From Takakia lepidozioides (Eukaryota; Plantae; Bryophyta), in the NCBI GenBank assembly GCA_030704615.1, contig CM060734.1, positions 51,770,001 to 51,834,000 on the forward strand: a stretch of DNA of 64,000 bases, given 5' to 3'. The position numbers and the translations under genes are program-made. Within the stretch, counting starts at the first letter, position 1, and each line of letters opens with the position of its first letter. This document shows, piece after piece, positions 30,426 to 60,284 of the stretch. The notes under the pieces are model-generated. The model had not been told where the DNA came from, made no database searches, and saw only the letters and a program-made list of their open reading frames with translations.

Positions 30426-31072
30426 AGATCAATCCCTCATAAGGAGAGACTGAACAACAAGTTATACAGAGTTGCAACAAAAATGCCGTCAATTACATTC
30501 AAACCGACTTGTGACAACTATCTAAAATTTTGGCCAGAGAAAGTGAGACAAAATCTGCAGTCCAAGATCCGCAAGCCCAAGAATGCGATCATCATCAGTT
30601 ACAATACTAACCTCCACATTCTTTTCAGGCCTCTTCTTCACAACCTTGCCCCCATGCAGATTAGCGAGACCACAAGTTAGCACTCCTCTTCCCCTCCCTG
30701 TTGTGAATGCAACGACGGCTTCCATATCGTCTCTCGGAATCAGCAACAAAACAACGAGGCCAAAAAGAGGGCCCTTGTCTTTAGTGCCGCCGTAGTGGTC
30801 GAAGGGGTTCACGGGTGCAGGCAATGAGAAACCGACAGGTGTCTGTGTAACAGGGAAAGGTCCATTGACATGAGGCAGAGATTCTGTGATGCCCACTCTA
30901 CAAGTGCGAACATGCTACTTCGGAGAAAGACGCAGACAGAGACCAGTGAGAGACAAGTGAGAGGATCACCTAAAGAGACAGAAAGAAGGGAAGGGGCGGC
31001 TACAGTCACGCAGTGAAGGGCAAGCGATCCGAACAGCAACTGGGAAATAGAATTGATCACGGGGAGGAAGCC

Positions 31073-34859: not shown

Positions 34860-35810
34860 AGGAAGCATAACTATATCGGGCCTTGAGTGATGAATAGAAA
34901 GTCCTGGCCACCATGGTAACATTGAATTTGGGAAACGAGCCATCTCCTTGACGACAAAACACCATTCCTGAGCCTAAGAAATTGACAGCTGGGTGAAATC
35001 GTTGAAGAAGGAGACCGATAAATTGAAAATAGTAATAGCAGCTCTGAAGTATCAGTTGCGTGCTGTCAAAGCGGAAAATAAAGTGATAGAAGCCAGAAGC
35101 AAGGCTGTGGAAGCCGAACTCCCATCGCTTACAGCGACAATTGAAGTGCTTGGAGCGGAAAATGAAGTGCAAAGAAAAAAAAGCGGAAAGGAAGGCTTTG
35201 GAAGCAGAAATGGCATTGCTTAAATGGTGAACAGAGGTGCAGGGACAATGTTCTGAAGAGGAGATTGTAATTGCCCAATGTGTGGCCAACCTCAAGACAA
35301 TACCCACTTTCTGGTACGGAATATTCTGTTTCATCATCCTCTTCCTCTTTACATCTGTATATTGTTCAAAGGTAGGCTTCCTGCCCTGAGTTTAAATTTC
35401 AGTCTAGTGCCAAGGCTAAGAAGGCCCTTGAGATCATCCTTAACGTCCTTGCCCAACAAGTTCAGGGACATTTATGCCCCCTGAATGGATTTTAGAGATT
35501 TAGCACGGTTGGATTAATTGATCTGCTCCTGGATATTGGAAGGGGTATCCCTTGGGCCTGCAAACTCATCCACAAACATAAGGGCTGGTATGGTGGCATC
35601 ACCCACCTTTAGCCCCAGTCCCTCGCTTTCCTTATCTTCAAGAATCCCTGAATCCGATCGATAAAGGTTTTTTGTGCCTAGCATTATGGCAGCTTGTGAT
35701 CCTGCCAAGGTGCTCACAAAAGCAGTGGAGGAAGGATGCTAACACTTTTGCTTCCAAGGTCTCTCTCATTTTCTCTGTGGGTCAATGGCCACAAGGCTAC
35801 GGCAAAAAAC
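34860..35810 (+). mobile_element. Rearranged LINE remnant (coiled-coil ORF1-like piece, zf-RVT piece, inverted RT piece, family 3' end)
   Basis: Coiled-coil ORF 34993-35223; CPMCGQPQDNTHFL at ~35273; minus-strand GLKVGDATIPALMFVDE (LF-ADD-like) at 35514-35717; 3' end shared with 1102-1128. Confidence 0.5.
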
Positions 35811-35861
35811 GTCTAACATTCTCACTCTCTCTCCCCAGTACAACATTGTGTTTAGTGTTTA

Positions 35862-36446
35862 ATGACCAAGTTGTCAAGCAATAAGGCAGTGCGGCGCATT
35901 CGAGTGCGTGGAGGTAACCTCAAGTTTCGGGCACTCCGCGTCGACGAAGGCAACTTTTCATGGGGAGGTTGTCACTCGCAAGGTTTGTATATTGGACGTG
36001 GTCTACAATTCATCGAACAACGAGCTTTGGCGCATTAACGCTCGTGAAGAACGCCTTCGTCCACATGGATGCTATCCCCTTCCATCAATGGTACAACTAG
36101 CACTACAATGTTGACAATGAATGTTCTCCGTTTCCTCTGCTCTTCCCCTCCTCTTTCTGCATCATGATAACATTGTTGTAGGAGTGTATGCACCTTTTGA
36201 TCTCAGTATATGGTTTGACATGCGCTCACTATATTGTACAAGAGGGTGTAACTGGGGAGGAGGAGAAAAAAGCGTGCAACCATGTCCAACGCAAAGTCTC
36301 CAAGAGGTAGGAGGACCAGAAGCTGGATCCGCATCTGGAGGACCAATTTGCCAGTGGCAGGTTGTTTGCTCTCGGCTTGGACAGTGTGGCCGTGCAGATG
36401 GGTATGTAGTGTGGTTTGATAATGCCACAACCAATTGGAGTTCCAT
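35862..36446 (+). pseudogene. RPS8: 40S ribosomal protein S8 pseudogene, truncated by a CACTA terminus
   Basis: [70 protein letters not shown]; frameshifts and stops. Confidence 0.9.
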
Positions 36447-37100
36447 CACTAGTACAGATTAACGTTTTTATGACTACGGATATCACTGCAAATGCAGTGA
36501 TAAGTGCTTTTACGACTACCTCACTCTACACTGACAAACACGAAGTCAGTTCTACCATGACTACGGAGTGATAAGTGCGAAGTCATGGTCGTCACTGAGG
36601 ACGTGGCATGCGATAGTGATGCAGGGTTTGGTGATGTAGTCATAACATAAATAACTACATGACTGTAAGTTATGACTACATCACTACAGCATTGCGCCTA
36701 CATGGAGAGGCTTGTGCGTGACACGTGGGATCCTTGGGATTTGACATGTGTGACCATATGGTACAGTGGACTACACGACTACACGATTACATGTCATGAC
36801 TAACATGATAACTACATTACTACAGAAGTCCACCTACATGGATAGTTGTCTGCGTGACACACGAAATCCCTCTGCTATGACACGTGTCCAAATCGTGGGA
36901 TGGAGTATAGTGATGTAGGCGTAACTTTATGACTACATTGTGTGACTACATTGATGACTACATAACTACTCAGTACATCGCTGAGGATGACATGTGGCAC
37001 ATTTCCTGAATAACTACATTACTATGGGTGTGACTATATCACTACAACACTACATATGCCACGTGGTTTTGTTGGAGTATGTGTGAATGACACCTGTAGG
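36447..37100. mobile_element. CACTA element terminus (CACTAGTACAGA) plus GACTAC subterminal repeats
   Basis: CACTA begins where RPS8 similarity stops and is followed by many actac/gactac repeats. Opposite terminus not seen in the window. Confidence 0.7.
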
Positions 37101-40536: not shown

Positions 40537-43500
40537 TCAAAGAGAATTTGGCGGAGCCCTACGTGAGGTGTCCCGCTGCAGAAAGGTGATGACTTCTCCG
40601 TAGCCTAGTGTGGCTTGGTGAATGAATTGGTCTTTCTTACCGTCGCAGCACATAATTACAAGGTATATGTAATATTGATGCTGGCAGGGGACCCACTTCT
40701 CTCTCATGCCGAGAGCGCCCTCACGCATCGTTACAAAATCCGGACAAGTGCACGTAGGGAAATTCCCCACGGTAACCTGATATTCTTTGCCATGAAGAAC
40801 TGAGCCAATAGACAGCACTGTGTAAATCCGTCCATACCCCGGGGCAGGGACTTCGGTGATATGAGTCACCCGAGCCTGCAAAATTCTAGCCGATTCCATC
40901 TTGCATTCGTGATCTGCACCCGAAGCAACACGGCGCATTGTTTTTCCATCTCTTTTTGTTGGGTGGGAGTCGGCATCGGCTGGAGGCATTGCCGGAGCAT
41001 GTGACACATCTGAGCCGACAGTGCATGAGGGCACCACCCGGGACCGTGCAAGACAAAACCCTCCCTCCTCCAGCATGCTTATCTCGGTTGATGACAACGA
41101 CGTCCCAAGTTTGACAAACCAAATTGCGGGGGGAGGGGGCTTCATTATCACCGAAGGACAAACTGTTCCCTTGACGCATCGTGCCATATCGTCTGGGCAG
41201 AACCAGAACTTGTGGTCCTTTGACTCCCCACTATGATAAGGTCAGAACAACCCTATGAATGTTGGAGCTGGAGTCCCCCTGGAGCCTTTGCATATTTTTT
41301 ATTTGCATTTCTTGAAAGAGGGGGTCCGAATTGCCATGCAAGCCACTCTAGATCCTGGTGGGGTGCGTTCTATATGCCACTCACTATCAATGCAATCATA
41401 TTCATGCACCGTGGCCACCACCTCCTCCAATGAGATTTCTGCTGCTGTGTTTGCATGATCTGCACCTGCTCCACTGGAGGAGGACCCACCTGGGAAGGGG
41501 CGGGCACACGACTTAGTCTGCACTAGAGACACCTTTGGTACAGAGAAATTGACCCTGTCCAGCCAATGGGAATCTCCATCCGACCCTGGAGGAGTGTTCA
41601 ATTTCCTTTTGCATAATCCAAATCTTTCCTCGCCTTCCAAATGGGGGACCTTGGATTACAAAGGGGAGCCTTCAGTGCACCTGTTCAGAGCTCTGGCCAT
41701 CTTCGATGGGTCTCCAGACCTACTCGCAGCCCTTAGCATCACAAAGTCGTATCAGGGCCCTTGCCTCGCCTCCGCCGTCCCATCAGAAAATTGCGGTACC
41801 TGGTTTTTTTGTGTAAGTGCCCGCACCATGTCATCAGCAGTGGCCACATACAAGTCACGTCCTGCTTTGGTAGACTGCTGCATCCAGGCGTTGTGAACAG
41901 TCTCCGCCAAATTACAGGATGGCATGTCGGCCAAGTCCTCCAAGGACATGTCCTGTAGGAGGCATTGCATAGAAATGTGAGGAACGAAAGGAAATGGAAG
42001 AGGTTCTGCAAGTGACAATCCAACAACCCCAAACGAACAGGCACGATGCAAAGTTAAATTTGTGTTTCTGGGATTGAAGAGGCTTACCGTCGTCATGAAA
42101 GCTCCCCACTGTCTGTACCTGAAGTGCCAGAAAACCAACCAGTCCTCCAACTCCTTCAGGTGGATACCAGTAGCAGCACCAGAGGAGAACCACCAAGTCC
42201 GGATTGCTTGGTAAGTGCTCTCAGCTTCTCCCATTGAGGTGACATTTTTATACTTCAGGCAGAGCCTTTTGTGCTCTAAAGGTCAGGGCGAATGCAGCGC
42301 TTTGTATGACGTGCCAGCGATTGACTCCAATGGAAGAGGCATGTGCGCTCCCTATTTTCCATTGGGACCTTAGGATCCCCCGAACCAAACACGCGATGCA
42401 CTGCATTGAAATTCGCCTCTGCACTATCAGCCATGAAGCCCGTAAAATTTGTGTTCTATATTCCGTTGCGCTGCATGACGGCCAGGAGCGAATTAAGCAT
42501 CTGGGATTCAGTGTCCTCCGACTGCATATCACAAATTGCTATGGAGAGCACACGCTGGTACGCTGGATCGTACACATGGCACGCCATGGTTGTCCAACCC
42601 TTCACCCGTTTGCAGTGATCAAACATTAACCAACATTTAGCCTCCAGGTTGCATTCGGCGGACTATGCTCACACCATTGCCTTCGCCCACTGTGGACATC
42701 TTGAACAAATACACCTTGGATGAGCCCTGACCAGGGAAGATACTGTTTTGAATGAATTCATAGCGACTCCTCCGTTTGAGGTCCATAATGTTGTCCATGA
42801 ATCCAGCAGTGCCTGTGCCCTTTCTGAGTGCATTTACCTGGTTTCGAATATTGGGAGAGCTCAACATGGAGAAATGGTCCATCACTGCATCAAGCGAATC
42901 TGCATCCAGCATTGGTTGTGTCGCATCCCTTTCACCCAGTATGTGTTTTTCCAGGAATGCCTTGCTAGCTGCAAGCGCTATAGTAGAAGGTGTTGCACAA
43001 GGGGCATTGTGGAACTCCTGCTTCAGCAGATTTCTAGCGATGTCCACGCTATCCCTGCAACTTCCTTTGGACACAGGATGCTCGTGTGTACCCATATGAA
43101 TGCAAGCACGAGTCATAATCTTGCATAGGTGTGCCACCTGGTACATACGAGCGTGACACACAGAAACACAGGACGGGGAAAGTTTGCAGAACCTACACAC
43201 AAAAGTATTGATCTTGGGATGGGCAAGCCCTGGGGTGAAAGAATTCAGGGGCACACCTTCCCACTCACTTTTGTTTGGTTTAGCGTTGTTTCTTAGCCGA
43301 GGGCAAGAAATATTCACGCACTTGCAATGCCCAACGCAAACCGACCTTCGAAATTTCAATCCAATGTCGTTGTGGATGTTCGTCGTTTTTGTCCTGCACC
43401 AAGGGTGTCCGTCATGTTTCTTGTCCATGCCCTGCAGAAGCCCAGCTAGTCCACTGGAAGACGTGGGAGGGTTGAGCTCAAACAAGATGTTCCATCAAAC

Positions 43501-44050: not shown

Positions 44051-45053
44051 TGGAATGAAATCGAGACTGATCGAAAGTTGCGATTCACAACGGAATCCCC
44101 GAACTGATAGCCCGTAATTCTCGAAAGGGGATCCACCACAAACAAACTGAGGTCAATAAGGGTAGCACTGACCCAAAGACTGGGGGCGATACATGCAAAG
44201 GATGTAGGAATGACAAGCACCGAACTTCGCAGACAGCCACACTGAGAGACACCAACCAGAAAAACTAAGCCACAAGAAGTCGTGCTGTATTTGGATGAAA
44301 AACAAACCCTGAACATGACATGAAACCATCCATTATGGAAAGACAGCAACAACCCTGGAGAGCAGTAAACAGGAAGACCCCGAATCTAATGAGGTTGTAC
44401 TGTGCCAGAAGAGCACAGCACAAACACTGACACTCCGGGGACACACCTCGCACGAATGTGTGTAACACATGACCATTGCCGACACAACCCTTTATACCGA
44501 ATGACCCCATTGCGACGGTGACGGCGAAATGCAAACTGCAGGGTAGGCAGTGCAACACACGTGGATGCATATGTGAAGCATAACAATTATTGCGAATCTG
44601 CAAGTACTGCTCGAAATTGAACTAGCATTAGATTTCTACGACACTTCCGAATTTGAAAGAATGCAAGAAGGCTGCCATGTATTGGCAGGCGGCGAAGTAC
44701 ATCTGACATATATCACAAGTACATGCAACGGATGTACTTTTTATCTACCACTTTATTTCTTGGATAATACAAAGACGCCGAAATGGATGAATTCCGTTCG
44801 CACACAATGATAACAGCCGCATCCAAATACGGTTAACAATGTCAAATTTTTATTTTGGTTACATGCCATAGCAACCCTTGTTGCAAACGTCAAACTGGAG
44901 AGCTCTAGAGGCAGCGTGGGGAGCCCTTGTTTCCAGCAGAGGAGGAAGAGAAGGAAGTCGTTATACTTCACAAGCACTAGGGATAGTGTCGTGCGCATAC
45001 ATATCGCTACACAACTACATCGCTGTCCAAACCACACCACACATATATGCACA

Positions 45054-45398
45054 ATAAGAAAGCTAAGGACACTGTTGACACAAAACATATGAAATGCATC
45101 GCTATCACTCTTTATAATAGAAGTCGAGCCAGGGGCACCCCAAGCTATGGGGACTCCACCCCACAACAACCTACACTCCCATCATGAGTACACTCAGATC
45201 TAAACGCATGCAGGAGCTCGGTCGCGCAGGCTCAACTCGAGAGAGATGAACTGCGCGACTGCCGCTCTCGTGAAGATAAGACGGACCAGGTGTCAAACTA
45301 AACTTGACACCTGATTTAACACTTGACCTAAATCCAAGTTAAAATACAAATAACTAGTTTTATGCTAGCTGTTTCACACTGTGCTTATTAACTTGACA
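45054..45398 (-). repeat. Long repeat A2 (copy of the 5' terminal repeat)
   Basis: First ~285 bp appear identical to 56785 onward; a few differences in the remaining ~60 bp. Confidence 0.95.
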
Positions 45399-45400
45399 GC

Positions 45401-45475
45401 TGTCGTGCGCATACATACGCTATATCGCTAACAACTACATCGCTGTCCAAACCACCACACATGTATGCACAATAA
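45401..45475 (-). repeat. Short repeat B1 (second copy B2 forms the element end at 44987-45057)
   Basis: tgtcgtgcgcatac...caactacatcgctgtccaaacca...gcacaataa present twice, flanking A2. Confidence 0.92.
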
Positions 45476-45490
45476 AGTAGTCTACCACAA

Positions 45491-45500
45491 TCGCCCCCCT
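45491..45500 (-). promoter_or_regulatory. Polypurine-tract-like site (AGGGGGGCGA)
   Basis: Purine run on the coding strand, just before a TG and the 3' repeat block. Confidence 0.55.
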
Positions 45501-45749
45501 AGCTGGTGGATAGGTCCCTCTACCTCCAGATAGCTACAAGACGTAATAGCCATAGCCGTACTAAGTCCTCTATCACTGTCCCTATCGTACTCAAACTCAT
45601 AGACCAAGAGCCGGGTACAAGAGTAGCCCATCGTTAGTCGCCGTCTTGCAATCTGTGAACTTGAGCCAGGACTTCGTGTATTCAAGGTCTCCTGTAGCTG
45701 GGCCTTGCGTTCTTATTAGCCTCCCATGGTTGTATCCACTCCCACTATC

Positions 45750-47210
45750 CAATGCTTGTGGACATAACCAATCCCCATCTGGAACCATCTCAAGAGGTGG
45801 AGTCAAGCACCCCATATGCCAACCTCTAGAGCATCGATCACACACCAGCATGGTGGCTGCCCCTTTAGCAGACCCACACAACATGCACCTCAAACCGGCA
45901 GATACCACTGCCAGGTTTGGGTCAATCCTGCCATCGACATTCGGAAGGTGACATGGCGCACAATTACGCACATGGTCCTTCCAAGTTATGCCATCCCGAC
46001 CCTCCAAGACCAAGACGCCCTGAGGGCAAGACCTCTCGAACCCTCAAAATAACACGTCCTGCAGTCACATCCAGGGTCGTAGAGCAATCTGCTGCAGATA
46101 GACATAGTCACCAGGGTTGAATCTCCGAACCTCAGGACGATAGCCCCACCACGTATGGTAGCATACCTCAACGTATCACGGTGTTGTGCAATGGCAAGGT
46201 TCTCGAAAGCCATGGGCATGACTCTCTTGAACACTCTGCACGCTGCTCACATGCACGTGCCCACCCGTCCGGATCGTCAAGGTTAAGAACTGTAGCAGCT
46301 TCTTCTCTGCGAATGGATGTAGGCAAATCCGGCTCTCGGCCAAAGAGAAGAAAGTATGGTGAGAAGGAGGCAAGTGATGCTGCTTGCTGAACCTGTAGCC
46401 CATGGCTAACCAGGGTAACTGAAGGTCCCAATCTCCTAGGTGTCCATTCTGCAAGCCATACTTGCGCAAACCCCTCTTTACTGTCTGAACAACTCTCTCT
46501 GCCAAGCCATCGGCTTCAGGATGATCCCGAGAAAGTGGTGCGGTGGTCTATCAAGGGCCTTGTCACACAAAGCCTGAAACTCCCCCAAGAACTCTCCCTT
46601 GGTCCGTGAGTACCTCAGCTGGAGCACCGAATCGGCTAAGCACACAATCCAAGAATGCATACGCAGCTCCCTCACTAGCCTTATCAGGCAATGGAACCAA
46701 TTCAATCCACTTGGAGAAGTGCTCCACCATCACCAACACGTACTTGTTGTGGCGCATGGTCAGTGGCAACGGCCCTGCGAAGTCAAGACTCCACCTGTAG
46801 CCCAATCCCATGATCGGAAGAGGGTGCAATTGTGGAGTAGGGGCGTTGAATGAAGCACGCACCCTGTCACACACCATGCACCTAGCCACAAATTGTTGCA
46901 CCTCTGTGTGCATACCACGCCACCAATACTGCCCCTGCAGTAGACTATGAGTGCGTCGCACCCCAAAATGCCCCAACTCCTCATGGGCATGCCGCACTAA
47001 ACCGTGCCCGCTGTGTTGGGTGAGGCACAATCCTCACTCGCCCATCCTCCCATACTCGAAGCAGGTGTGTCCCCTCCCACCTGAACCTCTTGGCTCGTTG
47101 TAGGATCCGATCCCTCTCCTTGGCAGTCATAGTGGGCTGTCGTGTCCCACTGCGGAGGTAGTCCAACACAAACTGAATCCTCATGTATATCTTTGGCGCC
47201 ACCCTGCTCA
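45750..47210 (-). CDS. Integrase (HHCC + DDE) with C-terminal PHD finger; frameshifted in this assembly
   Basis: HEELGHFG..CMVC; WSLDFAGP; TDQG; AERVVQ; PHD CMLC..MLVCDRC..WHMGCL.PPL..VPDGDWLCP (~45755-45887). Confidence 0.92.
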
Positions 47211-47392
47211 TTGCTGGCCTCAGGGTCCTCAGACACTTGATCTACAGTCATCCCTGTTGTAGGTCCAACCTGGCCTTCCGCTGCCAGATACACAGAAATG
47301 CAGATGCATGCCATCCGGGCACCATCTCCTCTCCGTCTCACCATGCCACCGAGCTCCAGTGTCATCCTGCTGGCTCGTGCATGGATTGCGAC

Positions 47393-48718
47393 TCAACCCA
47401 TCTGCATTTCGATTGACCAAACCCGGTCGATGCACCACCTGAAAGTCATACTCTTGAAGGATGAGTGCCCACCGTGCAAGCTTCCCCGAAGCTTGTCTGA
47501 CTCATCAACCACTTGAGTGGGTTGGTGATCCGTGACAAGGGTGAAGAGATTGCCGTATAGATAGCACCTGAAGTGTGCCACGGCCCACACTGCAGCTAAG
47601 CATTCTCCCTCATATGAGCTATACTTAGACTCTGCAGCATTGTTCGAGCGGCTAGCATAAGCCACTACGAACTCTCTTCCCTCATCATCCACCTGTGTGA
47701 GCACCGCTCCAAGCCCCAGCATGCTCCAATCTGTATGCAGCTGAAAAGGACGCCCCCTGATAGGTCGTCTCAAGATGGGCGCCGAGGTCAACCTCGCCTT
47801 GAGCTCTTGAAAAGCTTGTTCTTGCTCATCTTCCCACTGCCACTCCTGGTCCACCTTGGTCAGCTTGGTTAGAGCCTTTGCAATGGCACTAAATCCCTTA
47901 ACAAACCGTCTGTAATAGTTTGCTAACCCCATGAAAGCTCGAACTCGGCTCACATCCGTGGGGCGTGGAACCTGTGCAATGGACTCTACCTTAGTCTGCT
48001 GTACCCCCAATCCTCCAGGATATATCATGTGACCCAGATACTCAATCTGGTTGTGGAAAAACTTGCACTTGCCCGGATGTAACTTCAATCCGTGCGTCCT
48101 CAAGCGCTCAAATACCCCCTGAAGGTGTCTCTCATGCTCCTCCACCGTAGCACTAAAGATGATGATGTCATCTATGTAGCACCGAGCAAACTCCACCCCT
48201 GCTAGAATCCTGTCCATGACTCTTTGAAACTCAGCGGGAGCGTTTTTAAGCCCAAATGGTAAGAACCGCCACTGGTATAGGCAATCCTTCCCGTGCTCAT
48301 TGATCCCCCAGAATGCCGTCTTTTGCTTATCCGCCTCCTTGATCGGCAACTGGTGATATCCGGATCGTAAATCCAACGTGCTAAAGACCTTGGAATGCCC
48401 AATGGCATCAAAGATCTCCTCTGGTGTTGGCATGGCATACCTATCGGACTTGGTCTGACGATTTACAGGCCGGTAATCACCGCACATACGTCTCTCCGTC
48501 CAATTGCCATAGACATCCTTCTTAGCTGGCATCACTGTGGCTGAAGCATACTCTCCACCAGAGAGCTCCACCAAACCTGCCTCCCAGAGATCTTGAGTCC
48601 TCATCTGAATCAAAGACCTCTCCATGTCACTGTATCTATAGGGTCTCCGAAAGATTGGCGTGTCAGTGGCCAACTCAATACGGATCTCTTGACCCTTCAG
48701 TGCTCCCAAGTCCTTCAA
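47393..48718 (-). CDS. Gypsy reverse transcriptase-RNase H
   Basis: RMCGDYRPVN, LDLRSGYHQ, LPFGLKNAPAEFQ, YIDD, YLGH, RH HTDWS..E..TDH. Confidence 0.97.
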   Translation of the reverse strand: MKDLGALKGQEIRIELATDTPIFRRPYRYSDMERSLIQMRTQDLWEAGLVELSGGEYASATVMPAKKDVYGNWTERRMCGDYRPVNRQTKSDRYAMPTPEEIFDAIGHSKVFSTLDLRSGYHQLPIKEADKQKTAFWGINEHGKDCLYQWRFLPFGLKNAPAEFQRVMDRILAGVEFARCYIDDIIIFSATVEEHERHLQGVFERLRTHGLKLHPGKCKFFHNQIEYLGHMIYPGGLGVQQTKVESIAQVPRPTDVSRVRAFMGLANYYRRFVKGFSAIAKALTKLTKVDQEWQWEDEQEQAFQELKARLTSAPILRRPIRGRPFQLHTDWSMLGLGAVLTQVDDEGREFVVAYASRSNNAAESKYSSYEGECLAAVWAVAHFRCYLYGNLFTLVTDHQPTQVVDESDKLRGSLHGGHSSFKSMTFRWCIDRVWSIEMQMG

Positions 48719-49169
48719 ACTGAAGGCAAAGCAATTCCTATAAGCCCTCAGGAACCGCCGTATACGTCGTCTCTCTCCTCCGGTGACAATGGGTCCAATG
48801 TCAGGCTCCCAATTGTCCTCCGTAACTGCAACCTTAAGTCCAGTGGGCTTAGAGGTAGAGGACGCGTCCCGTGGTTGCTATGCTGCAACCTCTTGAGCAG
48901 TACCCCCTTCCTGCTCAGTCAATGACAAGGCCTCATCCTGCCCCATCATCTCATCATTGAGAACCTCCTCATCCCGAGAAGAATCCCCAACCTCATCCAT
49001 CACAGCTGCCTTCGCTGCCAACTCCCTCTGAACCTCGAGCACCTCCCACGTGTGCCATGGATGTCTACACCTCGTGGTCCTCACCGGCTCGCCCCCACTC
49101 GCTGCCTGTACCGTCTCGGTAGGCAGAGAGACCGTCAAGGGAAGTGCACTCCGCACTCTACGTTGCTCA

Positions 49170-50125
49170 GCCATAGCCAAGCTGACAATCCAGGTCAAGC
49201 AATTGAGATCCATTGCTTGCCCCAACACCTGACGACGTGATGCCTCAGAAAGAGAAGGCACCGCCGTGGTCCCAGTGGAAAACCCCATAGCCCGCTCTCG
49301 CTCGTCGGCATTAGGCTCCACTAACTGCTGCAACTGAGCATCCCACAGGAGGCCAGGTCCACCATCCCGAAAAGCATGGGATCCTGGGAAGCTGAGCAGT
49401 GTAGGTAATGCTGCTCGTGGTTGACCCACCCTGTTGACCACTGCCAAAGGCGAACGGTCATCGTGTCTCACACGTTGAGACTGCCTTCCTGTGTCCAAAA
49501 TGCCATCCACGTTGAGGTGTGCTGGCCGCTGCACCCCATCAAATGCACGCTTGAGCAGTGCGGGTGGCATCAAGTTAGTCCACCATAGTCGTGGACGATG
49601 AGCCCGTGACCCCACTGCAGCTGCATCCAGCAACACTGCTGACCCAAGCCACGACCGGACTTGATGCACACTGGCCATCACCCTGGCCCGAGAATCACCC
49701 ATCAGTGGTACATTCTCCAAGATGTATGCTGGAGATACAGCTTGATGAAGCTGCAAGCAGCGCAAAATCCGCACCATCTCCCAAAACAGACCCGTCCTCG
49801 AGTCTCGCAATCCATTGCCATGCCCGGCTGATGAATGCCCTTGGCAGGGCCAACCTGCCACTATCAGATCAATGGAGCCAACCTGCTCCAAATCTTGCGC
49901 CCCCAACAAGGAAATGTCTGCTGGCAAGGCTTGTTGGTATCCACGAACTGCAGACACAGGCAACAAGTCAGGGTACTGCTGTACCAACTGAGCACATGGC
50001 GCAGTGAGACGCGTCGTGCAGTCTCATCCCTCTCCACATACAGGTAACGCCTTACCCGCACACCTGCCTGTAGCACAGCAGCCAATCCGGTGCTGATCCC
50101 GCCAAACAAGTCCAGAAGGCAAATG
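49170..50125 (-). CDS. DNA (cytosine-5) methyltransferase domain, DNMT3-like, embedded in pol
   Basis: Ordered C5-MTase motifs: I LDLFGG, II YVERD, IV AGWPCQ (catalytic PC), VI ILENV, VIII AHRPRLWWTNL, IX ERERAMGF, X LGQAM. One 1-bp frameshift near 49992. Confidence 0.93.
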
Positions 50126-50485
50126 CCTTCATCCGGCCGCTGCCACACAAGAGGTGTGGTGTCCAATGGCGACAACTGAGGTGGCCCTGGTGCAATCACC
50201 GCACTCTCCTCCTCTCCTGACGGTACAAAAGCTTCTCCCAAGCTTGTTGCACCCGTCCATCAGCAGCTTGCTGCAAATCCTTGCTCGTACCCCACAACGG
50301 AGTGTGAGCAACCATGGCAGGCAACTCCGCCGTACCATGCATGTCATCCTGCTCTGCTGGAGGTGGCACATCCTCTGCATGGGCATTGCCTTCCAGCAAC
50401 TCTCCAGGCCAACTAACGGCAGCTGTGAAGGCGGCTAGTGTTGGCATCTTGCCCCGCTGGGCAGTTGCAATACCCCCAATGAATG

Positions 50486-53077
50486 TCACAGGAGCTGTGC
50501 ACGGCGACCATCCCCTGACTGCCATCCAGGCCTGTAGGATGCTGACTCCTCCCAGAAATCCAGGGTGAAGCCCATGGGGTATAACACTGCCCCACCAACG
50601 AGGACATCGTAAGAGACCGCGTCTGTCACAATGGCCTTGGCTCGCATCACTGAGCCATCTACAGGATGATCCGGCTGCAGTCTAATAGCCAACTGATGCC
50701 GTGTCATGCCGCGAGCCTGCTCTGATCCTCCCAGAGATGTCTGTATCTGGAAAGGACAAGGCTCCATATCCGCCTCCATGAGGCCCAAACCTGCAATAGC
50801 AGCTCTGCCCAACATCAGTGGCTGAGCTCCTGAGTCCAACAAGACCCGCAGTGGCCGGTACTTCTTGCCTGCCGGTCCACTCAAAGTGAAAATGCCTCCC
50901 TGGTTGTCTAACAAGACAACTCCAGGTGTCACCGTGGCGCGCTCAAAGGCTGGCCTAGCTGGCAGCTCCGTCAATCTGGCAGCTGCAACTTGCCATGGCG
51001 CAGCCGTGGCAGTCTTGACCCTCAAATCCGAGGATCCCTCTGCCACTATACCTTCCACTAACTCCGCAGAAGATGAAGTGACCTCCCCACTCTCACAGAG
51101 AGTTGCTGCTAGTCTGAACACTGCAGCTGGTCTCACCCCCGGCGTCGCAATCATGGTTGCCGAGAACAGTGGGGCTTGACACACAGAGGTGGCTGCCCCC
51201 AATAACACACCGGCTGCACTAGCCTTGGTAGCAGGTGTCAATGCTGCACGTGTAGCTCTCCCCAATGGCATAGTAACCTCCGCCTCGGTAACAGTCGGGC
51301 GAGAACTAGGTGCCATGGATGGCGTTGACACTGTCTCCGCCAAGGTGAATGACTGAGGCAGCCTCGCCTGACGGCTTGCCTCCCCACGTTGTGGATCCAA
51401 CTCCACCTCTGCACCTCGTGGCTCAGGAACTCGTGCTGCTCCTCGAGTCACGGCTGCAGCAGACTCCACCTGCTCTAGTGGTAGTGCTGCTCCGCACATG
51501 AATCCCATGCCTCCCATATCTCCTCCCTCAGGAGCAGGAGGTGGACCATCCCGCCTGGGAGCCGGTACCGCCTGAGCTATAGCCATGGCAGCGAGCCTCT
51601 GCTCTAGCTGCTGAAGCCGATTGGCCATGCCTTGGTCAACACCCTGACCTCCGCGTCCTTGGCCATGTGGAGCTTGCCCTTGGCCTGCACCTCGTGCCCG
51701 ACCACCTCGTCCTCTTTGGGCTGGTCCACCTCGCCCCCGGCCACCATTGTTCCCTTGGAACTGGCCTGGGCGCAACTCAGGATGCAAGTCATAACACTGG
51801 GCATCTACATGCCCATACTTGCCACAATGCCCACACTGCAACTGTGCAGGCTGTGCTTGTGCCGGCCTTCTGCCATTCTCTGGGCAATCTCTTTTGACAT
51901 GGGGTCCTCCACATGTCCAACATATCACCCCTGGTTGCTGTTGGCCTGCAAAAGATGCCACGGGCCTCTGCACCTGAGGTCCCCTGTAAGCTCCATGGAA
52001 CTTGGGCTGGGCAACCTTGCCCCCCTGACCACGCTGTTGGGCAGTCCCTTGTGCCTGTGGGTTGACAGTTGTGCCCCGTGCAGGCATGTCCTTGCCAAAT
52101 CCAATTGTAACAACTCGCTCCTCCACCATGTTGAGCTCAATCCGCTCAGCCAGCAGAAACACATCTGCTAATGTGGGTTGGGCTGCTTGTAACAGGGTTG
52201 CATCTCGCACCCTTCTCTTGAGCTCCTTGTCCAGAATTCCATACCAAAACTGGATTGCCTGAGCTTCAGTAACCCCTTGGGTCACACTTATCAAGCGCCT
52301 CATACGAGTGTACGCCTCTCGCAGGCTCTCACTGGGTTTGCGCTGGAAGTCTTGCAAACTTCGCAGCTTCTCTGTCCGTACACCTTGGTAGTTCCTCCGC
52401 AACTCCTGGAAGAACTCCACCACCGGGTTGAATCTAGGCACATGTGTTGTAGTCGTGGCAGGAGGAGTAGTAGCACCTTTTGAACTGGTACCACCTGCAG
52501 AAGTACCAGCACTACTTGCTCCACTACTAGTGCTGGCAGTGGGAGCTATTGGTACTGATGCAGCTACTGGTCGCGTCGTGCCTCGAGTAATGGAGACGTA
52601 GTCAGGTGACCAATACATCCTCCACTCCTCAATCTCTGCTTCATGTCCTCGCCTGAACTCGTGGTAATCGTCCATAGGCGGGCCTTCCAAATGCTGGAAC
52701 AGTCCCTTCCACGCCATGAATGGGGTGAATAGCTGTGGATTGCGCATCTGCTGCAAATCACACCAGCTGTCAAACTCCTGGATAAAGTCATCCAACTCGA
52801 TTGTGCCCACAGCTCCAGAGTACCTACGAGGCCCCTTGGTAGCTCCATACATCTCCTCCATGTCGTCCCACAACAATGGCGAATGAAAGTGCACACCTGT
52901 TGATGAAGCCTCCGAGTCTGTGTCTGACTCTACAGTAATTGAGGGTGGCGGTGAAGGTGGTCTGAACCGAATACCTCGTCTTGTGAACCCACTCTCACTG
53001 TTACTGCCTGTAGCCGTACTCCCCTCAAAACCCTTGGGTAACTCCGTAATGACACTCACAATGTGCACCTCCTCCAC
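50486..53077 (-). CDS. gag: gag-protease polyprotein
   Basis: 863-aa open frame: capsid-like region (LQDFQRKPSESLREAY), knuckles CWTCGGPHVKRDC and CGHCGKYGHVDAQC, RGG tract, protease LLDSGA...DVLVG. Confidence 0.92.
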   Translation of the reverse strand: MEEVHIVSVITELPKGFEGSTATGSNSESGFTRRGIRFRPPSPPPSITVESDTDSEASSTGVHFHSPLLWDDMEEMYGATKGPRRYSGAVGTIELDDFIQEFDSWCDLQQMRNPQLFTPFMAWKGLFQHLEGPPMDDYHEFRRGHEAEIEEWRMYWSPDYVSITRGTTRPVAASVPIAPTASTSSGASSAGTSAGGTSSKGATTPPATTTTHVPRFNPVVEFFQELRRNYQGVRTEKLRSLQDFQRKPSESLREAYTRMRRLISVTQGVTEAQAIQFWYGILDKELKRRVRDATLLQAAQPTLADVFLLAERIELNMVEERVVTIGFGKDMPARGTTVNPQAQGTAQQRGQGGKVAQPKFHGAYRGPQVQRPVASFAGQQQPGVICWTCGGPHVKRDCPENGRRPAQAQPAQLQCGHCGKYGHVDAQCYDLHPELRPGQFQGNNGGRGRGGPAQRGRGGRARGAGQGQAPHGQGRGGQGVDQGMANRLQQLEQRLAAMAIAQAVPAPRRDGPPPAPEGGDMGGMGFMCGAALPLEQVESAAAVTRGAARVPEPRGAEVELDPQRGEASRQARLPQSFTLAETVSTPSMAPSSRPTVTEAEVTMPLGRATRAALTPATKASAAGVLLGAATSVCQAPLFSATMIATPGVRPAAVFRLAATLCESGEVTSSSAELVEGIVAEGSSDLRVKTATAAPWQVAAARLTELPARPAFERATVTPGVVLLDNQGGIFTLSGPAGKKYRPLRVLLDSGAQPLMLGRAAIAGLGLMEADMEPCPFQIQTSLGGSEQARGMTRHQLAIRLQPDHPVDGSVMRAKAIVTDAVSYDVLVGGAVLYPMGFTLDFWEESASYRPGWQSGDGRRAQLL

Positions 53078-53590
53078 GTGACACTATAAGGCTCTAGTAC
53101 TAATCTAATAGTGACACGGGTGGGCACCTGTTGCAGTCTAAGGGTCATATCCCAATGGCTCAGGGCACCTGCATCCACCGCAAGAACTCCTATGGTTGGC
53201 TGGTCATCAACCCAGCCTCACCATAGAAGAAACACTGGTGGTCTTGCTGGTCATCACTCCAGCCTCACCACCGACAGCATACTCTAGGATTGACCGGTGA
53301 TCAAATCCGGCCTAATCCCTATGAAAGCAAGCGCCCACACAAAACCAACATGGCGCACAGTCAAGCATGCAGGTGTTGGGGGGGATCCAAACACAAGAAA
53401 TCAAAACATCAACACCCCCACACCAAAATCCAGCTGCAATGCTGATCCTGCAGAATATCCCAGCCCAAAACCCCGGACTGACTGGCCTCCACCAAGAGAG
53501 GCTTTGGCAACTACAAGTACAAGGTAATGAAAATAGTACAGAGATGGAGGGGAAGAATAGAAGCCCGCCCAAGCAAGATCTAATCCTGAT

Positions 53591-54340
53591 CTATGCTATC
53601 AACTTCCAGACTTCTCTCAAAGTGCCTCGCTCTGCTTGATGGTAAGGTGTAGGAGGTATATCTATGTCCAGAAACCTGCCACTAACCTTGTCCCAAGCTA
53701 CAGTAGCTCGCTCTAACCAACCCTCCTCCTCTTTCTGCCAGGTAGAGACAAAGCAACACTCTGCTATCTCCCGCTCACTGAACACTAAAGAAAACAAAGG
53801 TAGGGTCTGATAGTCTCTCAACTCGAAAGCTTTGAGACGGTTGCGGGTGTCTTCATTGCGAATGACTGCATCGCCTTCAAACAGAACAAACTTGTCCTCG
53901 CTAATGAACCCCCGCTCGTGGTTGCCTTGTGCAGAGCGTGTCCGACTGCAACACTGTCTAATTGCACAAACTTGTGCAGCTCCTGCTCCTCTGCTCCAGT
54001 ACACCACGGCCTTGTGGCTGAACACCTTGGTCCCCGAGGCTGTCTTTGGCTGTGTTCCAAGCCTAGCTTTCACCCACTTTGGTATTTCACCTACAGCTGC
54101 AGAACTGCTGGCTCCAACAGAGTTCTGACTGTTCAAGGCGATATTGAGGCCCTCAATGCCAACTACAGCAGTCTGTTGTCTACTGCTAATGCCTGACTCC
54201 CAGTATGCAATCAACTCGTCCAACTGTTCTCCACTCAAATCAGTCTGAGTTCCTTGGGAAACATAAATCGTGTCCCCTTGTGTGCACAGACTAAGAGAAG
54301 AGACCTGCCCTTCAATTACGTCCTCATTTCCCCCAGCCAT
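53591..54340 (-). CDS. Unknown 249-aa ORF upstream of gag, inside the element
   Basis: ATG-initiated, uninterrupted, same strand as gag; no recognised motif. Confidence 0.45.
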   Translation of the reverse strand: MAGGNEDVIEGQVSSLSLCTQGDTIYVSQGTQTDLSGEQLDELIAYWESGISSRQQTAVVGIEGLNIALNSQNSVGASSSAAVGEIPKWVKARLGTQPKTASGTKVFSHKAVVYWSRGAGAAQVCAIRQCCSRTRSAQGNHERGFISEDKFVLFEGDAVIRNEDTRNRLKAFELRDYQTLPLFSLVFSEREIAECCFVSTWQKEEEGWLERATVAWDKVSGRFLDIDIPPTPYHQAERGTLREVWKLIA

Positions 54341-55041
54341 GCATGGAGTACATCCACCAATTTGTCTCTCATATGGACCAGCACAGGTTCTAGAGACAGG
54401 ATTGTGGATCTTTCATGGCACACTCACACTCTAAAAATTCCATAGATTTTTAGCAGAGTCCCCAAAACAGAAACCAGGTTTAGATAGGTAGATTTCCCCT
54501 TTCTGTAGCTATCCCCCCAAAAACTGGGTCAAACAGAGTCCATTTGACAAAGATATGATGAATTTGGCTCCAAATCATTCAAATTAAATTAAAAAGGGGG
54601 GTTTTTTTTTTTTTCTTAAAGGTTTTCAAGTTTTAAAAATTCAAAGTTACACTCAAAATATCTGGTAACTGGTTCCCGGTTCCCTAAGTTCTATATGGCA
54701 TCCTAGGTTCCCTGACCACGTGACTGTTGTTCCCCTCCATTTCATTTGAGTTCAACAGCTCACCATGCTTTGGAATCCCAACCGTCTTCTACCACAAACC
54801 GTGGTGACGATGGAGTTCGTGAAGCGATCCTTCCCAGTGAACCCTCGAGAGACGAGTCCCATGTGCACTTGATATACACTCTCTTAATAGAGATCAAAAT
54901 CAGCAAGGAGACACCATTGACGACACCCAGAGATCAGAGACAAGTACTTGCGCAGTTCGGAGGCCACAGCATCCCCTCTGGACACTGAGCGGGGAATAGC
55001 TGCTACACAGCAGCTCAGTCTATCGTCAGCTCCTATACCTA

Positions 55042-55494
55042 CTAGCTTCCTGCCCCTGCCATAATCAAAGAGACAAGTGACACAACACCAGCTGGAAACA
55101 CCTTTCCTGAATTTTTGTATCGAGAGCCCATCACAAACAAGAGAAGCCTTGAAACAGCAACACCGATAGAGGACGCAAGGACAGGGTTCGAGGGCAGGTT
55201 CAGATAGACATAATAGAGGATCAGAGCTGACCCTCCCCCTGACAGCAATGACTTGCTGCTCCCAGATTTTGCAAATCCGATCACTCCTCCCAGACCAACA
55301 AGGACTGCATACGCCAAGGTCAGCTTCTGCGACATAGACAGCTTCATCTTTCCGTCACCACTTCCCTCTTCCTGTCCTCCCTCACCACCGTTCCCGTTGC
55401 CTCCATTGCCCGACACTTGGGTTACATGCTCAGCCAGACCTTCAAAAAAACCTGGCCCAAAATTCACTGGCTGCTCGGACACTGGCATGACCAA
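55042..55494 (-). pseudogene. Captured TMEM14/FATTY ACID EXPORT (plastid FAX2-like) sequence with divergent C-terminal end
   Basis: Gly-rich linker then LSMSQKLTLAYAVLVGLGGVIGFAKSGSSKSLL..GSRY..SGKVFPAGVVSLVS, typical of the plant FAX/Tmemb_14 domain; no introns. Confidence 0.85.
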
Positions 55495-55973
55495 ACCTCT
55501 TTAACTCCAATCAGCCTGCTGCTGAGTTACGATCTCATCACCAAGCAAAATCTATCCCAATGCCCAGTTGAGCTGCCAGTCTCGCATTCACTTTCCCCAC
55601 CAAGGCAGCTGCAGTACACTGACTGTCTTAGCTCCCTCCATGACAACCTCCCGCATTTGGGCAAGTTCAGCTTCACGGACCTCCCAGCGACTTAGCAGCT
55701 GCTTCAGGTCATGGTCCTAGCTAGCGCATGCTGGGCTGCAACCAGTTGCAGATCCTTATCGTGTAGAAACCCCTTCACTGCTCTCTTTCCATCTCCTGAC
55801 GCCATGCTCCATCCTCCAGCCACTTCACTTGTTTCAGGCACCCAGGTCCCTATGGGCAGGTCACATGCTCCGGCAACAGGAGTGCTCTCAAGCGGACATT
55901 GAGCGCCCTCCACTGACTCAGTTGAGTGTGCAAACCTTTCTGCTCATGCAGTTCCAGCAGTCAATACTCACTC

Positions 55974-56465
55974 CTAGTGATGATGATGTTCATGCCCTAG
56001 AAGACCACCCTCTCCTATCACCTTCAACTGAAAGACTTGGCTGCAGTCTGAGCATTCATACTGTTTGTCCTTCTCCAGCTTGAACCATGTCACATCATGC
56101 TCATCCTCACCAACACCTCCTGAGCACCCAACTATCCGCTCATCATAGTGTGACTCCACAATTGCAGGGGCATCCTTGGTTCCAAAGGGACCACGAGGCG
56201 GATCCAGATCAAAGCGCTTCCCACCCGAGCGCTCCGCTTCCAACTCCTCCAGCTCAACTCCTGTTGCAATTCCAAAATCGCCCGAGCTGCCTCCTGCACT
56301 TGCCAAATCACGACTACGATGCAGCCACCGCGCATATGAGAGACCCCGATGTTCTGATTGCTCCGCTTGCGGTTGCGGGTTACACAGCAATGTCGGTGGA
56401 GGCACACATGGTACACGCCTGGATGCAACCAACCGTGAGAGCCTGCATCCAGCCGTCCTCAACAT
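55974..56465 (-). CDS. COX5B: Captured intronless cytochrome c oxidase subunit 5b copy
   Basis: IATG.E.EELEA, GPFGTKDAPAIVESHYDERIVGC.GG.GEDEHDV.WF.LEK..ECSDCSQ.F.L, His-rich end; Arg-rich presequence-like N-terminus from ATG 56465; single open frame. Confidence 0.92.
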   Translation of the reverse strand: MLRTAGCRLSRLVASRRVPCVPPPTLLCNPQPQAEQSEHRGLSYARWLHRSRDLASAGGSSGDFGIATGVELEELEAERSGGKRFDLDPPRGPFGTKDAPAIVESHYDERIVGCSGGVGEDEHDVTWFKLEKDKQYECSDCSQVFQLKVIGEGGLLGHEHHHH

Positions 56466-56782
56466 AGCGCCCCACTCCCTCTGGGCCTTGCCATCACACC
56501 ACCAGCTGCCATCGACATATCCTCCGCAGACGGCGACGCCCTTACAGTGGAAGCACACCTCGCCAATGCCAACAGAAATATGGGCAGACCACCATTACTC
56601 TCTCTTCTACCACACCATTGCGACTGGAGATGTGAGACGAACTCAAGCTAGAGCCGTTCTATGCTCCTTGCTTGAGCTGCGTACAAGACCATGACCATCT
56701 ATATTATAATAGTGCTTAAAAAAACAAAAACATCATATCTAGCTTAGCACTGGAAAACTAGATAGTGCTCATCTCTCTCGAG

Positions 56783-57132
56783 TGATAAGAAAGCTAAGGA
56801 CACTGTTGACACAAAACATATGAAATGCATCGCTATCACTCTTTATAATAGAAGTCGAGCCAGGGGCACCCCAAGCTATGGGGACTCCACCCCACAACAA
56901 CCTACACTCCCATCATGAGTACACTCAGATCTAAACGCATGCAGGAGCTCGGTCGCGCAGGCTCAACTCGAGAGAGATGAACTGCGCGACTGCCGCTCTC
57001 GTGAAGATAAGACGGACCAGGTGTCAAACTAAACTTGACACCTGATTTAACACTTGACCTAAATCCAAGTGTTAAATACAAATAACAAGTTTTATGCTAG
57101 CTGTTTTCACACTGTGCTTATTTAACTTGACA
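56783..57132 (-). repeat. 5' terminal repeat A1 (TG...CA on the coding strand)
   Basis: Coding strand reads TGTCAAG...CTTATCA; copy of 45054-45398. Confidence 0.95.
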
Positions 57133-57489
57133 ATAGGAATAGAGCCAGATATAGAATGAGGATGGAAAGAGTAGATGAAGAGGTAAAGGAGGAAGAAGAG
57201 GGCAAAGAGGAAAGTCTGGTGATGGAAGAGCAGGATTCTGGAGAAGAACAGCAGCCCGCCATACTTCCAAGAACTAGTGAGGAGGAGACTGCATCCGAGG
57301 GAGAGACGGACGCCGAAGATGATGTTGATGTTGGCCTCACAAAGAAGCAGATAGTGGGAAAGAGGATGGGGGAGATGCTCCAGAACATGCTCGGCGTAGA
57401 GAGCAGTCCGAAGCGCAAAGGATCTCCGGCGATTGGGAAGTCTTCTGGAGCACCCAAGAAAAAGGTACAAGTGATGGCCAAACCTACTT

Positions 57490-60170
57490 GGAAGCTCAAA
57501 CAGAGTGTGGCAACGCACACTGTTTGAGACCCACATTTGTGCTTCATTTTTTATGTCAAAATCGGCCACTTTGGGCCTCTCTGTCTGGTTCAATTCACCA
57601 CAGACTGGAATGTCAATCAGTGTGCGACAACGCACACAGTTTCAGACCCCACTTGTGCTTGTTTTTTTTATATGAAAATTGCCTACACATGGCATCTCTC
57701 TCTGGTTCAATCGACCCGTATTAAGAAGCACAAACAGTGTGCGCCAACGCCGGCCGCTTGAGCCCCAACTTTGTGCTTGTTTTTTTATACCCAAATCGGC
57801 CCCAAAACGGGCATGTCTGTCTGGTTCAATCCTCCACTATTTGGAAGCTCAAACAGTGTGCGGCAACGCACACTGTTTGAGCCCCCACTTGACATTATGT
57901 TCTCATGTTAAAATCGGCCACAAAGGGCATCTCTGTCAGGTTCAATCCAAACTTACCTGGCAGCTCAAACAGTGTGCGTCAACGCACACTGTTTTAGCCC
58001 CCCTTTTGCCTTGGTTTTTGGTGTGGAAATCGTGCACACAGGGCCACTCAGGCAAGTTGAATCCACACTTACCTGGAAGCTCAAACAGTGTGCGTCAACG
58101 TACACTGTTTGAGCCCCCCTTCTCATTGTTTGTTTCATGTCCAAATCTGCAATCTTAGGGCATTTGTTCTGAGGTTCAACCACAATTACCTGGCAGCTCA
58201 AACAGTGTGCGTCAACGCACACTATTTGAGCCCCCCATCTCGTTGTGTAATTCATGTAAAATCGACCACAAATGGCATTTTGGACAGGCTGAATCCACAC
58301 TTAAGTGGGAGCTCAAACAGTGTGTGTCAACGCACACTGTTTGAGCCCCCTTCTTTTTGTTTGTTTCATGTTAAAATCGGCCACATAGGGCATGTCTTTT
58401 GAGGTACAACCACAATTAGCTGGCAGCTCAAACAGTGTGCATCAACGCACACTGTTTGAGCCCCCCTTCTCATTGTGTGTTTCAAGTTAAAATCGGCCAA
58501 ATAGGGCATCTCTTTTGAGGTTCAACCACAATATCCTCGCAGCTCAAACAGTGTGGGTCAACGCACACTGTTTGAGCCCCCCTTCTCGTTGTTTAATTCA
58601 TGTAAAGGTCGGCCACATATGCCATCTCTGACAGACTGAATCCACATTTAAGTGGCAGCTCAAACAGTGTGCGTCAACGCACACTGTTTGAGCCCCCCTT
58701 TGCCTTGTTTTTTGGTGTGGAAATCTTGCACAAAGGGCCACTCTGCCATGTTCAATCCACCCTTTATTGTGCGGGAACGCAAACTATTTCGTGCACACAG
58801 GGGCCTCTCTGTAAGGTTCATTCCACCACTATTGGGAAGCTCAAACTGTGTGCCCCCTTCAGTGCCTGTTTTTTTATTTGAAAATCGGCCACTCATAGCT
58901 ATGATAAGTTCAAATCACCCCTTATTGGAAGCTCAGACAGTGTGCATTGACGCACACTGTTTGAGCATCCTTTTTTGCTTGTTTTTTTCATGTGAAAATC
59001 GTGCATACAGGGGCCTCTATGTAAGGTTCATTCCACACCTCTTTGGAAGCTCAAACAGTGTGCGGCAACGCACACTGTTTGAACCCCCATTTTGCCCTGC
59101 TTTTTGCCTTGTTTTTCTTGTTCAAAACAGCCACAAATGGCATCTCTGTCAGGCTCAATCCACACTTACGTGGCAGCTCAAACAGTGTGCGTTGACGCAC
59201 ACTGTTTGAGCCCCCCCTTGTCATTGTTTTTTTCATGTGAAAATCGTGTGCACAAGGGCCTCTCTGTAATGTTCATTCCACCCCTATTTGGAAGCTCAAA
59301 CAGTGTGCGGCATCGCACACTGTTTGAGACCTCATTTTGCCTTGTTTATTGCCTTGTTTTTCTTGTTCAAAACGGCCACAAATGGCCTCTCTGTCAGGCT
59401 CAATCCACACTTACGTGGCAGCTCAAACAGTGTGCGTTGACGCACACTGTTTGAGCCCCCCTTGTCATTGTTTTTTTCATGTGAAAATCTTGCACACAAG
59501 GGCCTCTCTGTAATGTTCATTCCACCCCTATTTGGAAGCTCAAACAGTGTGCGACAATGCACACTGTTTGAGCCCCCATTTTCCCTTGTTTTTCTTTTTC
59601 ATAACGGCCAGAAATGGCATCTCTGTCAGGTTCAATCCACATTTACGTGGCAGCTGAAACAGTGTGCATTGACGCACATTGTTTGAGCCCCCCTTGTCAT
59701 TGTTTTCTCATTTGGGAATCGTGCACACAGGGGCCACTGTTTGTGCCCCCTTCACTGCCTGTTTTTTGATTTAAAAATCGTCAGAATAGGGCCACTATGC
59801 CATGTTCAAACCACCCCTTGGAAACTCAAATGTTTTGGGCCCCATCTCTGTTTGTTTTTTTAATGTGAAATTGGGCGAAACACGGCCAGTATGGATGCTC
59901 AAAACACCCATAGTTGGAAGAACGAACAGTGTGTGGCCCCCTCTCTGCATGTTTTTTTATGTGGAAATGTGTCACATAGGGCCTAATGTCATGTTGAAAA
60001 CACCTCTATTTGGAAGCTCAAGCAGTGTGCGGCAACGCACACTGTCTGTTCCCCACTCTCTGCCTGATTTTAGATTTGAAAATAGACCACTCATGGCCAG
60101 TGTGCCATGTTCAAATCACCCATTATTGGAAGCTCAAACAGTGTACGGCAACGCACACTGTTTTTGGCCC
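57490..60170. repeat. Tandem array (~115-125 bp period, ~20 full units plus partials) with 36-bp palindrome GCTCAAACAGTGTGCG-NNNN-CGCACACTGTTTGAGC
   Basis: Cores at ~57494, 57611, 57728, 57847, 57963, 58079, 58196, 58311, 58426, 58542, 58657, 58931, 59049, 59176, 59294, 59421, 59538, 59653, 60016, 60132. Confidence 0.97.
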
Positions 60171-60284
60171 GCACAATGCTTGTTTTCTCATGTGAAATGG
60201 GCCAAATCGGGCCTACCTGCCATGCTCTAAACACCATCTGTTCTTGCATCTCTCATATATCAGTTTGAATGAACAACCGTGTAG

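Follow-up and report, generated by a model that had tools for sequence, protein, structure and literature searches.

The window, a 64,000-nucleotide stretch of Takakia lepidozioides DNA, contains a 12.1-kb retrotransposon that we assign with high confidence to an abundant lineage of split-repeat Gypsy elements carrying a DNMT3-like cytosine methyltransferase (DNMT) domain. It represents, in a land plant, a variant of an element known from algae, earlier descriptions having been only algal and dinoflagellate. Added here are a readthrough-type stop that sets the DNMT on the Gag side (an arrangement not described before), the split-repeat anatomy with target duplications, and a second architecture in chlorophytes.

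Structure of the element

The element spans positions 44987–57132 (12,146 bp; it and all of its stranded features lie on the minus strand), has the ends TGTC...GACA and is flanked by a 4-bp target-site duplication, CTAT (57136–57133 and 44986–44983). Pfam searches gave the domain order Gag, protease, DNMT, reverse transcriptase (RT), RNase H, integrase and PHD; the Gag–protease–RT–RNase H–integrase order, the DDE integrase and the target-site duplication are those of Ty3/Gypsy. Gag and the aspartic protease (50489–52861; PF03732 below its cut-off, and alignment) include two zinc-knuckle-like stretches (51922–51884 and 51835–51794) and the protease motif LLDSGA (50842–50825). RT and RNase H (47396–48877; PF00078, PF17917 and PF17919) include the RT motif YIDD (48178–48167) and are followed by the integrase (H2C2 zinc finger and DDE core, 46179–47033; PF17921 and PF00665), which is frameshifted in the window copy and has a PHD finger at its C terminus (45762–45887; PF00628, E = 4e-11). 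Upstream of gag lies a family-typical stretch of high depth with a 273-codon open frame (53594–54412), for which we found no Pfam match, no match in related loci and no useful Atlas match.

The element has no pair of complete flanking LTRs; its repeats instead follow a split layout, A–coding–B–A–B. The 5′ copy, A1 (348 bp, 56785–57132), matches A2 (45398–45054) at 98.6%, with 2 mismatches and 3 gap letters. A polypurine-tract-like run (45500–45491) precedes the first B repeat, B1 (45490–45401), the same order being found in loci L006 and L033 (45401–45500 in the window), and A2 is followed by B2 (about 45058–44987; together 44987–45398). The split layout was found in three elements (window, L033 and L044), the latter two having identical terminal words and their own 4-bp duplications, AAGG and CATA. 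At the B/A junction, the palindrome GACA-GC-TGTC (45395–45404) unites the two terminal words of the element; it consists of both element ends and two bases, resembling a circle junction, and also occurs 190–600 nt after the PHD finger in L006, L033, L034 and L050, in the last despite a different domain order (DNMT after RNase H). This anatomy suggests integration from a circle opened at the palindromic junction. No primer-binding site was identified in the element, and a tRNA gene search of the window found none. We rejected a DIRS/Ngaro tyrosine recombinase element, as PF00665 is present and the 11 frames scanned gave no recombinase match.

Between repeat A1 and gag, an insert of low depth (54800–56780; Pfam and contig depth) contains intronless pieces of host genes, namely COX5B (56594–55977) and TMEM14 (55500–55045), both identified by Pfam, and perhaps a third piece between them. 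The best named matches of the COX5B piece are from Calypogeia, Sphagnum and Riccia, with a lycophyte closely behind, and contigs of run X6 match the captured pieces with loose ends, a pattern expected of host transcripts. The insert looks like mRNA capture by the element.

The window copy is frameshifted and dead. Its alignment with an intact Marchantia relative (Mp_4g09160, 1,278 residues) falls into four pieces, the frame changing three times (near 50490, near 50250–50190 and near 49990), and the last change puts DNMT motifs I–II out of frame with motifs IV–X; alignment and contig data reveal further breaks in the integrase. The continuous protease–methyltransferase–RT frame envisaged in an earlier, sequence-only reading of this DNA therefore does not exist in the window copy, and the stop ahead of RT is a family trait rather than damage.

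A DNMT3-like domain in an abundant family

The DNMT domain (49170–50130; Pfam, structure matches and alignment) lies between the protease motif LLDSGA and the RT motif YIDD on one strand, as the sequence-only reading had it. The motifs listed there were borne out in unrearranged order from 50115 to 49208: I (LDLFGGISTG, 50115–50086), II (50046–50023), IV (GWPCQ, 49864–49838), VI (ENV, 49726–49709), VIII (AHRPRLWWTN, 49603–49571), IX (49303–49280) and X (GQAMD, 49225–49208). They comprise the C5 methyltransferase signature, including the catalytic Cys (IV), Glu (VI) and RxR (VIII), and the larger DNMT frame matched PF00145, the profile proposed for checking it, at 50.8 bits (E = 2e-13; cut-off, 22).

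Comparison of an intact relative (P0002) with solved structures ranked DNMT3A first (E = 4e-11), followed by DNMT3B, 4onj (1e-6) and HaeIII (5e-5). We take the 4onj chain to be plant DRM. A predicted model of the motif IV–X piece of the window had a pLDDT of 80, and all matches listed in a fold search with this model were DNMT3A, DNMT3B or DNMT3C. The suspected likeness to DNMT3 is thus found both by sequence (P0002) and by fold, DRM and bacterial enzymes being more distant than DNMT3 among solved structures; DUF3444 was not found in the element by Pfam. Across 165 domains, the catalytic Cys was kept in 162 (the other 3 being gaps), the ENV Glu in all and the motif VIII arginines in 163 and 164, a conservation partly favoured because the domains were collected by similarity; loss of these residues in other copies, which the earlier reading had named as a possible refutation, was not what we observed. 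Judged by motifs and modelled fold, the domain is a DNMT3-like cytosine methyltransferase, with methylating activity predicted for intact members of the family.

For selection analysis, 13 chosen loci were compared. The dN/dS ratio was 0.09–0.12 in three pairs among L025, L026 and L034 (aligned pieces without stops) and 0.08–0.24 between the window and others, the latter with dS above 2 and near saturation; many deeper pairs were saturated. Decayed near-identical sister copies gave 0.33–0.74, and RT behaved like the DNMT. The ratios of about 0.1, from a check that the earlier reading had proposed, indicate that the DNMT domain is under purifying selection; those of the decayed copies count against it.

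About 87,000 contigs per run fell on the element (two sequencing runs of one sample). Summed contig depth in run X1, which is not equivalent to copy number, was 16,000–25,000 over the DNMT, 27,000–37,000 over RT, 11,000–37,000 over the rest of the element outside the insert and 8–31 over the host-gene insert. Given this difference, the insert is not typical of the family; the DNMT depth, being of the same order as that of RT and about a thousand times that of the insert, indicates an abundant family in which the domain is regularly present. The concern that other copies might lack the domain is thereby answered by depth as well as by the relatives described below.

The same data bear on the idea that a fragment of a host DNMT3 was captured once and is decaying in a single Gypsy copy, like the COX5B and TMEM14 pieces. 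The window copy is indeed broken, and the same element took up host pieces elsewhere, but the DNMT depth exceeds that of those pieces about a thousandfold and is comparable to that of RT, dozens of relatives in several genera have the domain at the same place, and the domain is without the DUF3444 that host plant DNMT3 carries. Relatives across genera, the depth profile and purifying selection refute a one-off capture, to which we give practically no credence.

A readthrough-type stop between DNMT and RT

The Gag–protease–DNMT open reading frame (ORF) is closed by a TAG at 48880–48878, and RT, RNase H, integrase and PHD continue in the same frame. The sequence at this position, TAG CAA CCA (48872–48880), has the in-frame UAG followed by the CAR-YYA hexamer of TMV-type readthrough, a signal of TMV and other plant viruses (PMC2194720). 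The domain was earlier placed inside pol; it ends the Gag–protease ORF instead, with the stop conserved ahead of RT. We fetched 64 loci, of which 43 had an alignable DNMT–RT junction (44 with the window). The first in-frame stop upstream of RT was TAG/TAA-CAR-YYN in 37 of the 44 (TAG in 26 and TAA in 11), against a background of 132 in 13,023 such triplets generally (1%). These 37 junctions form seven groups at 80% identity, with DNMT identity to the window down to 46–53%; 29 of them belong to one near-identical, mostly decayed subfamily that has CAA-CCC (one CCT), mostly followed by ATG. Strict CAR-YYA was found in five of the seven groups (the window and five loci), the 31 further junctions having CAR-YYN only. 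Among the seven junctions that did not match, one has a second stop replacing CAR and the rest have another stop first.

Positions 48872–48882 had no variant listed at a frequency of at least 2% among 2,022 contigs of run X2, so that the stop is shared by other copies in the same organism and is not private damage; with only about 29 of 221 places varying, the invariance of the nine bases is a weak test of conservation and shows sharing only. Among 218 classified relatives, 28 were Gag–protease–DNMT proteins without RT, and 22 of these end 75–168 residues past the domain. In distant members, a Closterium protein among them, one frame holds both DNMT and RT, so the lineage as a whole does not depend on the stop; from the junctions compared, it looks like a trait of the subgroup to which the bryophyte elements belong. 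Folding of the RNA surrounding and following the stop at nine junctions revealed no shared structure, and only L049 and L034 had a downstream z below −2.

On the basis of these junctions, expression of the RT side by readthrough of the conserved stop is quite probable. Points against it are the non-strict signal of the large subfamily, the TAA stops, the seven unmatched junctions, the absence of a shared RNA structure and the single frame of distant members. RT and integrase might otherwise come from an RNA spliced at the TAG, which would act as 3′ splice site, or from ribosomes that re-initiate at an ATG just past the stop. Consistent with such routes, an ATG stands two codons after the stop in two of the seven junction groups (including the largest), pyrimidine runs precede the TAG in several junctions, and the linker is missing from the Marchantia gene models P0005 and P0014, although both models are likely gene-prediction artefacts. 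The other five groups are without such an ATG, yet CAR-YY and the frame are kept in all seven, and one X6 contig spans 47082–49252 across the stop with no joint (a weak point, X6 being RNA by guess). We regard splicing or re-initiation as distinctly improbable, and both routes would leave the DNMT with Gag, on the abundant side.

Readthrough, the reading that we prefer, has precedents. In MuLV and like retroelements, readthrough of about 5% fixes the Gag-to-Pol ratio (PMC2194720), and the element shares a readthrough-type stop with TMV, MuLV gag–pol and soybean SIRE1 pol–env (PMC2194720, PMC2829016). Unlike in these systems, the stop, at which readthrough is predicted, follows protease and methyltransferase and leaves an enzyme cargo on the Gag side.

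Relatives and known systems

A representative protein library yielded 213 proteins at E values up to 1e-30. The nearest named DNMT relatives are liverwort proteins, with relatives at 65–73% in Marchantia and Calypogeia, those in Sphagnum, Riccia, Closterium and chlorophytes being more distant; the names comprise Marchantia polymorpha, M. paleacea, Calypogeia fissa, Riccia sorocarpa, Sphagnum, Closterium, Klebsormidium, Scenedesmus and Chromochloris (those from Marchantia, Calypogeia and Klebsormidium being compared as proteins). No tracheophyte name occurred among the named rows, a minority, of 74 proteins and of the best 120 of 280. Two family members (P0307 and P0483) bear cyanobacterial names from metagenome bins and are likely contamination.

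A midpoint-rooted DNMT tree of retroelement domains only (134 domains of 250–420 residues with readable architecture, from 218 proteins) parted 56 domains located before RT from 78 located after RNase H by one branch with a support of 99. The RT tree (64 rows) recovered the same subgroups, with poor support for the architecture split (49). The second architecture, RT–RNase H–DNMT–integrase–PHD, was seen in P0056–P0060, P0095 (Scenedesmus) and L050; its sole named member in the tree is a chlorophyte. Chromochloris P0309 is a further match to the DNMT.

The closest described system is KnitGypsy-Dnmt3 of Klebsormidium nitens (de Mendoza et al. 2018, PMC5890265), for which a figure legend indicates a DIRS-like split-repeat layout. 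In the K. nitens protein GAQ93235.1, zinc knuckle, protease motif and DNMT follow one another as in our element, and the protein aligns with Marchantia Mp_4g09160 unbroken over protease, linker and DNMT (569 columns, 29%, E = 1e-54). Assuming from its make-up that GAQ93235.1 is a KnitGypsy-Dnmt3 product, the two elements have a homologous DNMT at a homologous position, and protease–DNMT ancestry is, on this alignment, shared with the Klebsormidium element. The link to Klebsormidium that the earlier reading had named is therefore supported by collinearity as well as by the common split-repeat layout.

Both elements have Gypsy domains, an unrearranged DNMT3-like domain, DIRS-like repeats and purifying selection (PMC5890265). 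They differ in host, here a land plant, in the high repetition of the present family, and in that a readthrough-type stop parts DNMT from RT, unlike in KnitGypsy-Dnmt3, in which the authors place the DNMT in the RT/RNase H ORF (PMC5890265); with the two domains in frame and a stop between them, the element is a variant of the KnitGypsy-Dnmt3 lineage. The PHD finger, 4-bp duplications and palindromic junction have no mention in the available KnitGypsy-Dnmt3 text (PMC5890265). SymbioDIRS-Dnmt3, SymbioLINE-Dnmt and EpiLTRs likewise carry a cytosine methyltransferase on a retrotransposon (PMC5890265; bioRxiv 10.64898/2026.05.21.726589) and, unlike our element, represent different retroelement classes in different hosts; the DNMTs of EpiLTRs fall with DNMT4 and are accompanied by DAM and a chromodomain (bioRxiv 10.64898/2026.05.21.726589).

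The element shares the Gag–protease–RT–RNase H–integrase order and TG...CA ends with the Ty3/gypsy lineages Phygy, Selgy, Tcn1 and Chlamyvir of REXdb, and 4-bp duplications with some REXdb lineages (PMC6317226). It is set apart from their descriptions, the words ‘methyltransferase’ and ‘PHD’ being absent from the catalogue text available (PMC6317226), in keeping with the earlier statement that such a domain is not standard in land-plant Gypsy lineages; split repeats could have been missed there because collection required ordinary paired LTRs (PMC6317226). Host plant DNMT3 (Yaari et al. 2019, PMC6453930) has the same unrearranged DNMT3-type catalytic domain, with a C-terminal DUF3444, and differs from the domain of the element, which is without DUF3444, intronless and within a polyprotein. 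According to one review, land plants such as tracheophytes lack methylase-encoding transposons (PMC6338049). The accessible text of the literature that we searched includes no report of the element in bryophytes or of its readthrough stop, later papers saying only ‘streptophytes’ (their supplements may include bryophytes), and the element is not mentioned in the accessible text of work on bryophyte chromatin and genomics. Copies of the element may inflate or confuse counts of DNMT3 in bryophyte genomes.

Proposed role of the enzyme

Taking the evidence jointly, we consider it probable that intact members of the family make a Gag–protease–DNMT polyprotein, with RT, RNase H, integrase and PHD supplied by occasional readthrough; the enzyme would be packaged and may pre-mark the cDNA. 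Most ribosomes would halt after the DNMT, yielding Gag–protease–DNMT, and few would read on to yield RT and integrase–PHD. The DNMT would then be made one-to-one with Gag, far exceeding the copying enzymes, and be packaged in many copies per particle. Once freed from the polyprotein by the protease, it could methylate new cDNA before or during integration, such that each copy would arrive pre-marked and either resemble old host chromatin or stay quiet (camouflage or self-limiting silencing). The PHD finger may steer integrase to particular chromatin.

That cDNA is the main DNMT substrate has, in our judgement, an even chance. We count against cDNA methylation the absence of extra CpG loss in the element and the inactivity of the Klebsormidium domain in yeast (PMC5890265). 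The observed/expected CpG ratio is 0.51 in the element, 0.53 and 0.48 in its flanks and 0.40 in the other LTR element of the window; within the window, the element thus shows no extra CpG loss relative to its flanks and, since it matches them and exceeds the other LTR element, no self-methylation footprint. The published yeast test detected no methylation by the Klebsormidium domain and was called inconclusive by its authors, and two Symbiodinium SymbioDIRS-Dnmt3 domains methylated CG de novo in yeast (PMC5890265). Instead of acting on cDNA, the enzyme might chiefly target the host genome in trans, methylating repeats de novo or silencing the family again once a burst is over, or it might serve as a structural nucleic-acid binder in the particle. 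A Gag-level output, if the stop works as predicted, would be far above the need of one cDNA, the element has no CpG footprint, and the report of retrotransposon-borne DNMTs in Klebsormidium and dinoflagellates does not settle their role and raises effects on the host (PMC5890265). A purely structural role is at odds with the retention of all catalytic residues, and fusion to Gag would place the enzyme inside the particle; we consider a trans or structural role rather unlikely.

The function of retrotransposon-borne DNMTs has been an open question since 2018 because their hosts are hard to work with. The annotation of Marchantia polymorpha, a genetic model, includes uninterrupted Gag–protease–DNMT proteins, so that activity, substrate and effect on the methylome can be tested, and the readthrough stop predicts the enzyme at the level of the coat protein, which constrains the mechanism. 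As a tentative and more doubtful picture, an old green-plant lineage at high copy in bryophytes would have an active DNMT3 on the Gag side of a leaky stop and form methyltransferase-lined particles that methylate cDNA ahead of integration and may add de novo methylation to the host genome. Its chlorophyte sister would have the DNMT after RNase H and before integrase, and a palindrome-opened circle may be the integrating form in both.

Neighbouring DNA

The other LTR element of the window is decayed and about 12.8 kb long (5571–18379, plus strand), with 850-bp repeats at 94.7%, RT similarity near 10300–11600 and no DNMT match. Adjoining the 5′ end of the DNMT-bearing element is an array of about 20 degenerate units of 116–118 bp (57480–60190), each with a short inverted repeat. 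Directly 3′ of the element lie broken frames (40537–43494, minus strand) that resemble a zinc-finger DNA transposon, the zinc finger being presumably of the SWIM type.
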